A DNA stretch of 39,980 bases, taken from assembly GCF_003334405.1 (NCBI RefSeq), contig NZ_QOWM01000025.1, one strand, 5' to 3'. The notes beneath the pieces were generated by a model, which saw nothing but the letters and a program-made list of their open reading frames with translations, had not been told where the DNA came from and did not search any database. Numbering within the stretch: the first letter of the stretch is position 1; each line of letters begins with the position of its first letter. The position numbers and the translations under genes were made by a program. Source of the stretch: Escherichia coli. Lineage in GTDB: Bacteria > Pseudomonadota > Gammaproteobacteria > Enterobacterales > Enterobacteriaceae. Below are positions 39,406 to 39,980 of the stretch, piece after piece.

Positions 39406-39412
39406 ATACAAT

Positions 39413-39500
39413 TGCCCGATGCGTAAGCTTATAGGGACTACGCATCGGTGCAATTTATTGAATTTTAGTTGTTTTTAGGCCGGATAAGGCGTTTATGAAC
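39413..39500. repeat. REP/RIP-like palindromic element downstream of yhhJ
   Basis: gcccgatgcgta…tacgcatcggtgc hairpin plus ttgaattttagttgtttttaggccggataaggcgttt, closely similar to the REP flank at 25822-25860. Confidence 0.6.
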
Positions 39501-39569
39501 TGACCCCCAAAACCTGGACAGTTTCAGTTAACCGGCTTTTTGATACTCAGTCCTGTATTCAGGGCAAGA

Positions 39570-39923
39570 TTACGAAAGCCCGCTCCCCGCAAGGACTGAC
39601 GCCAGATAGTTTCTGTCCATGGCTGCTTTTCGCATCTTACGTCTTAACCCTGCCTTGAATACCTTATCATTCGTCAAAATATTAATAGCAATGTGCCGTA
39701 TCCCTGAAAATAATTCTGCTGCATTTCCTCTTCTTATTTTGCAGTCGTCTTCATTCATTACCACGTCCAGACGCCAGTGCAGCTTATTCTCCACGTGCCA
39801 GTGATTTCGGATCGCTGTGGCGAATTTCTCAGCGGTTAAATCAGCAGAACTGATATAATATCTGACCGTCATTTCTGGCTCTTTCTTTTGTTCTGCTATT
39901 ATGGACCGAAAGGAGACTGCCAC
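39570..39923 (-). mobile_element. yhhI: C-terminal portion of an H-repeat-associated (ISAs1-family) transposase-like protein, truncated at the window edge
   Basis: 117-aa frame ending …[99 protein letters not shown], typical of an H-rpt/ISAs1 transposase C-terminus. An in-frame stop lies just upstream (about 39969-39971), so this copy may be frameshifted or the N-terminal part is in another frame. Confidence 0.6.
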
Positions 39924-39980
39924 GCATAATTTCTTCAGCCCTTTCCATTCAAACGTGAAATCAATAAGTTCATCAGGGAC

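Follow-up and report, generated by a model that had tools for sequence, protein, structure and literature searches.

The yhhI reading frame at the edge of an Escherichia coli window very probably belongs to a complete ISEc1 element bordering the RhsB island

Introduction

Bacterial insertion sequences of the ISAs1 family, whose prototype is ISAs1 from Aeromonas salmonicida, share a compact layout with the H-repeats of Escherichia coli: about 1.3 kb of DNA, a single open reading frame (ORF) for a DDE transposase, and short terminal inverted repeats. Target duplications in this family measure about 8–10 bp. K-12 carries H-repeats. One of them is yhhI (b3484), carried by the element termed ISEc1 or H-rptB and called ‘the E. 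coli K-12 H-repeat element’ (PMC3715488). It lies within the stretch b3481–b3485 at which the rhsB element has been placed (PMC3032704), in agreement with the gene order reported here. Another is ydcC, the H-repeat at rhsE, which likewise spans 1291 bp, has the same termini and a 378-aa ORF, and shares 97.9% nucleotide identity with yhhI; the two copies are separated by 27 nucleotide and 9 residue differences and have other flanks. H-repeat transposition has not been observed according to PMC3032704, and a K-12 mobilome preprint places ISAs1 among the insertion sequence (IS) families without elevated circular-DNA coverage.

Here, we analyze the end of a 39,980-nt stretch of E. coli DNA (henceforth termed the window), where an original prediction had proposed a truncated or frameshifted H-repeat transposase remnant. 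The last 421 bp of the window are 100% identical to K-12 ISEc1, and the 136 residues encoded there equal YhhI 243–378, so that the visible part of the element shows no difference from K-12; the window is not MG1655 itself, as a mismatch at 38218 reveals. The neighbors of K-12 yhhI are likewise the same, with rbbA-yhhJ on one side and, in close relatives of the window, the yrhC/HEAT pseudogene, yhhH, rhsB, and nikR on the other. We conclude with high confidence that the window edge cuts an ordinary and complete ISEc1 copy (H-repeat B, yhhI), a 1291-bp ISAs1-family IS located at the edge of the RhsB island. The element itself is already known, a textbook K-12 H-repeat, and nothing about it is new.

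Results

The gene that reaches the window edge corresponds to the following feature:

39573..39980, minus strand: yhhI codons 243–378, identified by translation, as an exact YhhI suffix, by the NF033564 profile, and as the C-terminal part of the DDE_Tnp_1 domain

Translation of the minus-strand frame from 39980 yields 136 sense codons (39980–39573) followed by a TAA at 39570–39572. Frame-by-frame translation places the first stop of the coding frame at 39572, with none before it, and the frame is open to the window edge. Stops near the edge are confined to the other two minus-strand frames, at 39937 in one and at 39975, 39972, 39963, and 39951 in the other. The in-frame stop that had been reported about 15 codons upstream of the longest open stretch is absent, since the frame is open for all 136 codons; most likely, it reflects a frame slip. 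An ORF list contains the gene as a 117-aa, GTG-started entry at 39570–39923, and this GTG is just the first start-like codon past the window edge, with no stop before it. As this entry illustrates, genes cut by an edge can resemble short or truncated ORFs in such lists. In short, yhhI looks incomplete because the window stops inside the gene and not because the gene is broken.

The 136-residue fragment is a member of the ISAs1 family. It matches the NCBIfam profile NF033564 (ISAs1) with 112.5 bits (E 2.2e-32, profile positions 223–314 of 314), the curated cut-off being 70 bits; on the same profile, the full-length protein encoded by a near-identical genome (locus L002) reaches 412.4 bits. In addition, the fragment is an exact suffix, residues 243–378, of K-12 YhhI (NP_417941 = WP_000420980). 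Two parts of the original prediction are borne out by these data: that the frame encodes the C-terminus of an H-repeat/ISAs1-family transposase, by profile score and by identity to YhhI, and that its K-12 equivalent is yhhI, by the identical residues and the same neighbors in K-12.

As the window holds residues 243–378 only, the Pfam architecture was read on the full 378-aa protein of the near-identical genome. It comprises DDE_Tnp_1_assoc (PF13808, residues 8–94, 1.9e-33) and DDE_Tnp_1 (PF01609, residues 102–343, 1.7e-29). Judged by motif, the aspartate in AIDGK (starting at 107), the aspartate in TTDAMG (starting at 170), and E306 in HVEN form a candidate catalytic DDE triad, of which the last is the sole member encoded in the window:

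39789..39791, minus strand: GAG codon of Glu306, candidate third DDE residue in the HVEN motif, assigned by motif position inside the DDE_Tnp_1 match

That Glu306 is catalytic is our assumption, based on what is generally known of DDE transposases. When full-length YhhI was searched by sequence against solved structures, no homologue emerged at E ≤ 1.

Copy-to-copy alignments fix the boundaries of the element and define two further features:

39560..39980, minus strand: ISEc1 (H-rptB), 3'-terminal 421 of 1291 bp, with limits set by copy-to-copy alignments; 100% identical to K-12, H3, and 503025
39560..39572, strand not applicable: terminal inverted repeat CAGGGCAAGATTA at the transposase-3' end, matching the other terminus CAGGGAAAGATCA at 11/13 positions

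The K-12 yhhI and ydcC regions are 97.9% identical across exactly 1291 bp, outside which they are unrelated. Dozens of independent copies start matching exactly at the base that corresponds to window position 39560 and end 1291 bp further on (query positions 580–1000 of a junction query and 200–1490 of a full-element query). ISEc1 is accordingly a discrete 1291-bp element with one 1137-nt ORF, and its remaining 870 bp fall beyond the window edge. The terminal repeats CAGGGCAAGATTA and CAGGGAAAGATCA are short and imperfect; at 13 bp, they fall below the 14–22 bp typical of ISAs1-family termini. The transposase TAA (39570–39572) sits inside CAGGGCAAGATTA, and the repeat consensus has a single match in the window, at 39560–39572. 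A generic inverted-repeat search did not single out the ISEc1 termini because they are short and imperfect, and they were found once the alignments had fixed the ends. We also considered an IS terminus near 39500–39530, where CTGACCCCCAAAACCTGGACAG resembles an IS end; this candidate was rejected, as the alignments give 39560 and assign the stretch to unique spacer. The G+C content changes from 54.7% in yhhJ (38281–39405) to 44.4% in the IS part (39560–39980), a drop that is consistent with a foreign origin of the element.

The span originally assigned to the remnant, 39406–39980, holds only in part: 39560–39980 (421 bp) is IS-derived and 39406–39559 (154 bp) is not. The non-IS part contains a hairpin next to yhhJ:

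39406..39559, plus strand: non-IS spacer from the yhhJ stop (39405) to the IS end, to which other ISEc1 copies show no homology
39410..39456, plus strand: hairpin directly after the yhhJ stop, then a U-rich run, identified as an inverted repeat and by RNA folding

The hairpin core reads CCGATGCGTA...TACGCATCGG, and the RNA fold of 39400–39500 has a free energy of -32.2 kcal/mol (z = -3.3). It is probably the terminator of rbbA-yhhJ and possibly acts in both directions, i.e., also against the convergent yhhI. A consensus terminator scan made no call on the hairpin at 39410–39456 because its loop exceeds the limit of the scan. In strains without the RhsB island, homology to the window reaches 39405, 39482, or 39492 and no further. 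A REP-like sequence, GCCGGATAAGGCG, follows the hairpin, and homology to island-free strains stops at or beside it (39482–39492). The 67 bp at 39493–39559 (GTTTATGAACTGACCCCCAAAACCTGGACAGTTTCAGTTAACCGGC...), which separate the IS from the conserved 3' region of yhhJ, have no counterpart beside other ISEc1 copies; the same stretch also adjoins an IS remnant in another genome (locus L007).

Near-identical genomes carry the gene in intact form. Many E. coli chromosomes match the final 2 kb of the window at 100% identity, and they annotate the gene as “yhhI: ISAs1-like element ISEc1 family transposase”. Strain H3 (NZ_CP028732) is among the best matches to the last 25 kb of the window; compared base by base, it shows 5 mismatches in 37,000 bases, none of them after 16099 (last 23.8 kb). 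In H3, the gene continues as an intact yhhI coding sequence of 1137 nt and 378 aa with no pseudogene flag, and the full 1291-bp ISEc1 is 100% identical to the K-12 copy. Over the final 2,980 bases of the window, K-12 itself shows only the mismatch at 38218, in yhhJ. The original prediction had named a full-length intact frame upstream as evidence against a remnant, and such a frame is present in every close relative examined, H3 being one example.

Across the species, the junction between yhhJ and the IS was found in 1829 of 5426 complete E. coli genomes, and all but 25 of these carry the complete element and its far flank (1804/1829). Secondary IS insertions in or next to the ISEc1 copy occur in a minority of strains (IS903B in XJ6.2; IS1 in H1827/12 and Ec1120). 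A true remnant at the same locus exists in L007, where the element carries an internal deletion and homology ends at window position 39606; the window runs past 39606 at 100% identity to intact copies. Pseudogene features were sought directly: there is no coding-frame stop in the window, the right terminus is present, and in the closest genomes, the ORF is full-length and neither terminus is missing. For the 870 bp past the window in the source genome, we infer intactness from these near-identical genomes.

Beyond yhhI, H3 contains a HEAT-repeat pseudogene (yrhC in K-12), yhhH, rhsB, and nikR-nikA, with rhsB starting ~1.7 kb past the window end. The order yhhJ, yhhI, HEAT/yrhC pseudogene, yhhH, rhsB, nikR is the same in H3, 503025, and K-12 MG1655. 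An Rhs region had been expected just beyond the window, and rhsB is indeed found there in all three genomes; judged by this shared order, the source genome presumably carries the RhsB composite past the window edge as well. About one in three E. coli genomes has the RhsB island between nikR and yhhJ, and ISEc1 is the island's yhhJ-proximal edge: the inner end of the element overlaps a C-terminally truncated HEAT-repeat gene, and the outer end abuts the yhhJ spacer.

The nikR–yhhJ gap is a multi-allelic insertion hotspot in which rhsB island plus ISEc1, present in about a third of genomes, is one allele. A second allele (L006) has a hicAB toxin-antitoxin pair directly before nikR, and homology to the window ends at 39405. 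A third (L005) holds a sugar-utilization island encoding a class II aldolase, HPr, a kinase, and PTS IIC, and homology ends at 39492. In L007, the allele is a decayed Rhs region whose ISAs1 pseudogene carries an internal deletion. At a different site, in STW0522-31 (L008:2502-3792), ISEc1 lies between a truncated dkgB, which it abuts with one end, and an RHS-core gene. This locus follows the same pattern as the yhhJ locus, where the IS marks the outer border of an Rhs island and lacks a duplication.

A sister copy of the element retains the footprint of an insertion event. In WP3-S18-ESBL-09 (L009:2001-3291), a 99.4%-identical ISEc1 splits an autotransporter gene (ECSE_1600-family) into two annotated pseudogene pieces, with a perfect 10-bp direct repeat, CCGAGATTAC, on either side of the element; for such a repeat, we estimate a chance expectation of about 1e-6. 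Across the 421 bp covered by the window, the copy shows no difference; in total, it departs from the yhhI copy at 8 nucleotides, and its transposase differs from YhhI at 2 residues (T19A, T198N). Because this sister copy has a perfect 10-bp target duplication, the genomic record indicates that ISEc1 has transposed in nature. The insertion is a clean transposition footprint of an element whose movement is commonly said never to have been observed.

The target duplication is absent at the yhhI copy, where the flanks read ...gtcctgtatt / gccgttgact..., and at ydcC too. For yhhI, we infer that one flank has therefore been rearranged since insertion. Loss of the duplication in this manner is compatible with ISAs1 membership and does not exclude it. 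The 10 bp of the sister copy fall within the family range of about 8–10 bp; the yhhI copy has no duplication. Relative to the ISAs1 family, the differences are the short, imperfect repeats (11/13) and, for the yhhI copy, the missing duplication and a position embedded at the edge of an Rhs island. Between yhhI and ydcC, dN/dS is 0.19 (12 synonymous and 9 non-synonymous differences), and the transposase has therefore been under purifying selection. When genomes were searched with an ISEc1 query that also contained about 400 bp of flanking DNA, the matching places per genome varied widely (median 6, maximum 39), which suggests that ISEc1 or related H-repeats multiplied in bursts in some lineages.

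Discussion

The preferred reading, a complete ISEc1 copy cut by the window edge, has to be weighed against three alternatives. That the copy is instead a decayed H-repeat remnant, its transposase gene broken by truncation or a frameshift at the window edge or a little upstream of it, we regard as very improbable. It could draw on the internally deleted ISAs1 pseudogene at the same locus in L007, on the occasional strains with IS903B or IS1 in or near their ISEc1 copy, and on the fact that the upstream 870 bp lie outside the window. Against it stand the zero in-frame stops in the window, the 100% identity of the 421 bp to intact copies, the intact 378-aa gene in all of the closest genomes, and the complete element in nearly all genomes with the junction. 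With the supposed stop absent and an intact yhhI in every close relative examined, the proposal of a truncated or frameshifted remnant falls.

The other two alternatives accept an intact element and differ in what it does. It is quite possible, if somewhat short of an even chance, that the intact ISEc1 copy is a passive RhsB passenger that no longer moves, being silent or trapped by flank loss, and that it matters only as a repeat for recombination between Rhs loci. The missing target duplication at the yhhI copy, the unobserved transposition of H-repeats (PMC3032704), and the unelevated ISAs1 signal in the K-12 circular-DNA mobilome study all point this way, and vertical inheritance would fit a copy found at one and the same position in about 1800 genomes. 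On the other hand, the copy retains both terminal repeats and its full ORF in intact form, a sister copy only 8 nucleotides and 2 residues away inserted cleanly with a 10-bp duplication, the dN/dS of 0.19 between paralogues indicates that the protein was under selection while the family spread, and some genomes have up to about 39 matching places. The remaining idea, that the transposase was co-opted by Rhs loci, e.g., for swapping C-terminal toxin/immunity ‘tips’, would explain why intact H-repeats lie so regularly at distal ends of Rhs islands, and it can point to an intact ORF under purifying selection and to the recurrence of ISEc1 at Rhs edges (the yhhJ locus, rhsE/ydcC in K-12, L008, and the RHS-adjacent matches H80, H116, and H123). 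We nevertheless consider it highly unlikely: no result of this analysis ties the transposase to Rhs rearrangement, copies also occur away from Rhs genes, as in the autotransporter gene, and the Rhs association is explicable by co-transfer and by the insertion tolerance of accessory DNA. Equally speculative, and in our view a long shot, is the broader proposal that ISEc1 is kept at distal Rhs edges for a role of its transposase in Rhs rearrangement, such as tip exchange or island capture. In a weaker version, the K-12-type H-repeat might still be transposition-competent, as the copy two residues away suggests.

For a complete and ordinary ISEc1, the following course of events can be proposed. 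The 378-aa protein, with its N-terminal DDE_Tnp_1-associated domain and its DDE catalytic domain, would bind the CAGGG(A/C)AAGAT termini, cut the element ends, and join these to a target whose two strands are cut 10 bp apart. Such a stagger fits the perfect 10-bp duplication around the 99.4%-identical sister copy. After rearrangement of a flank, the outer IS end would have become the exact border between the RhsB island, i.e., accessory DNA, and core DNA.

Together, these results correct a type of annotation error in which a gene cut by a window edge is taken for a pseudogene. They also fix the exact IS boundary at 39560 and confirm that the window abuts the RhsB island. Their wider value is modest: the insertion in the autotransporter gene indicates that ISEc1 has been mobile in natural E. 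coli, and the gap between nikR and yhhJ emerges as a hotspot of insertion.
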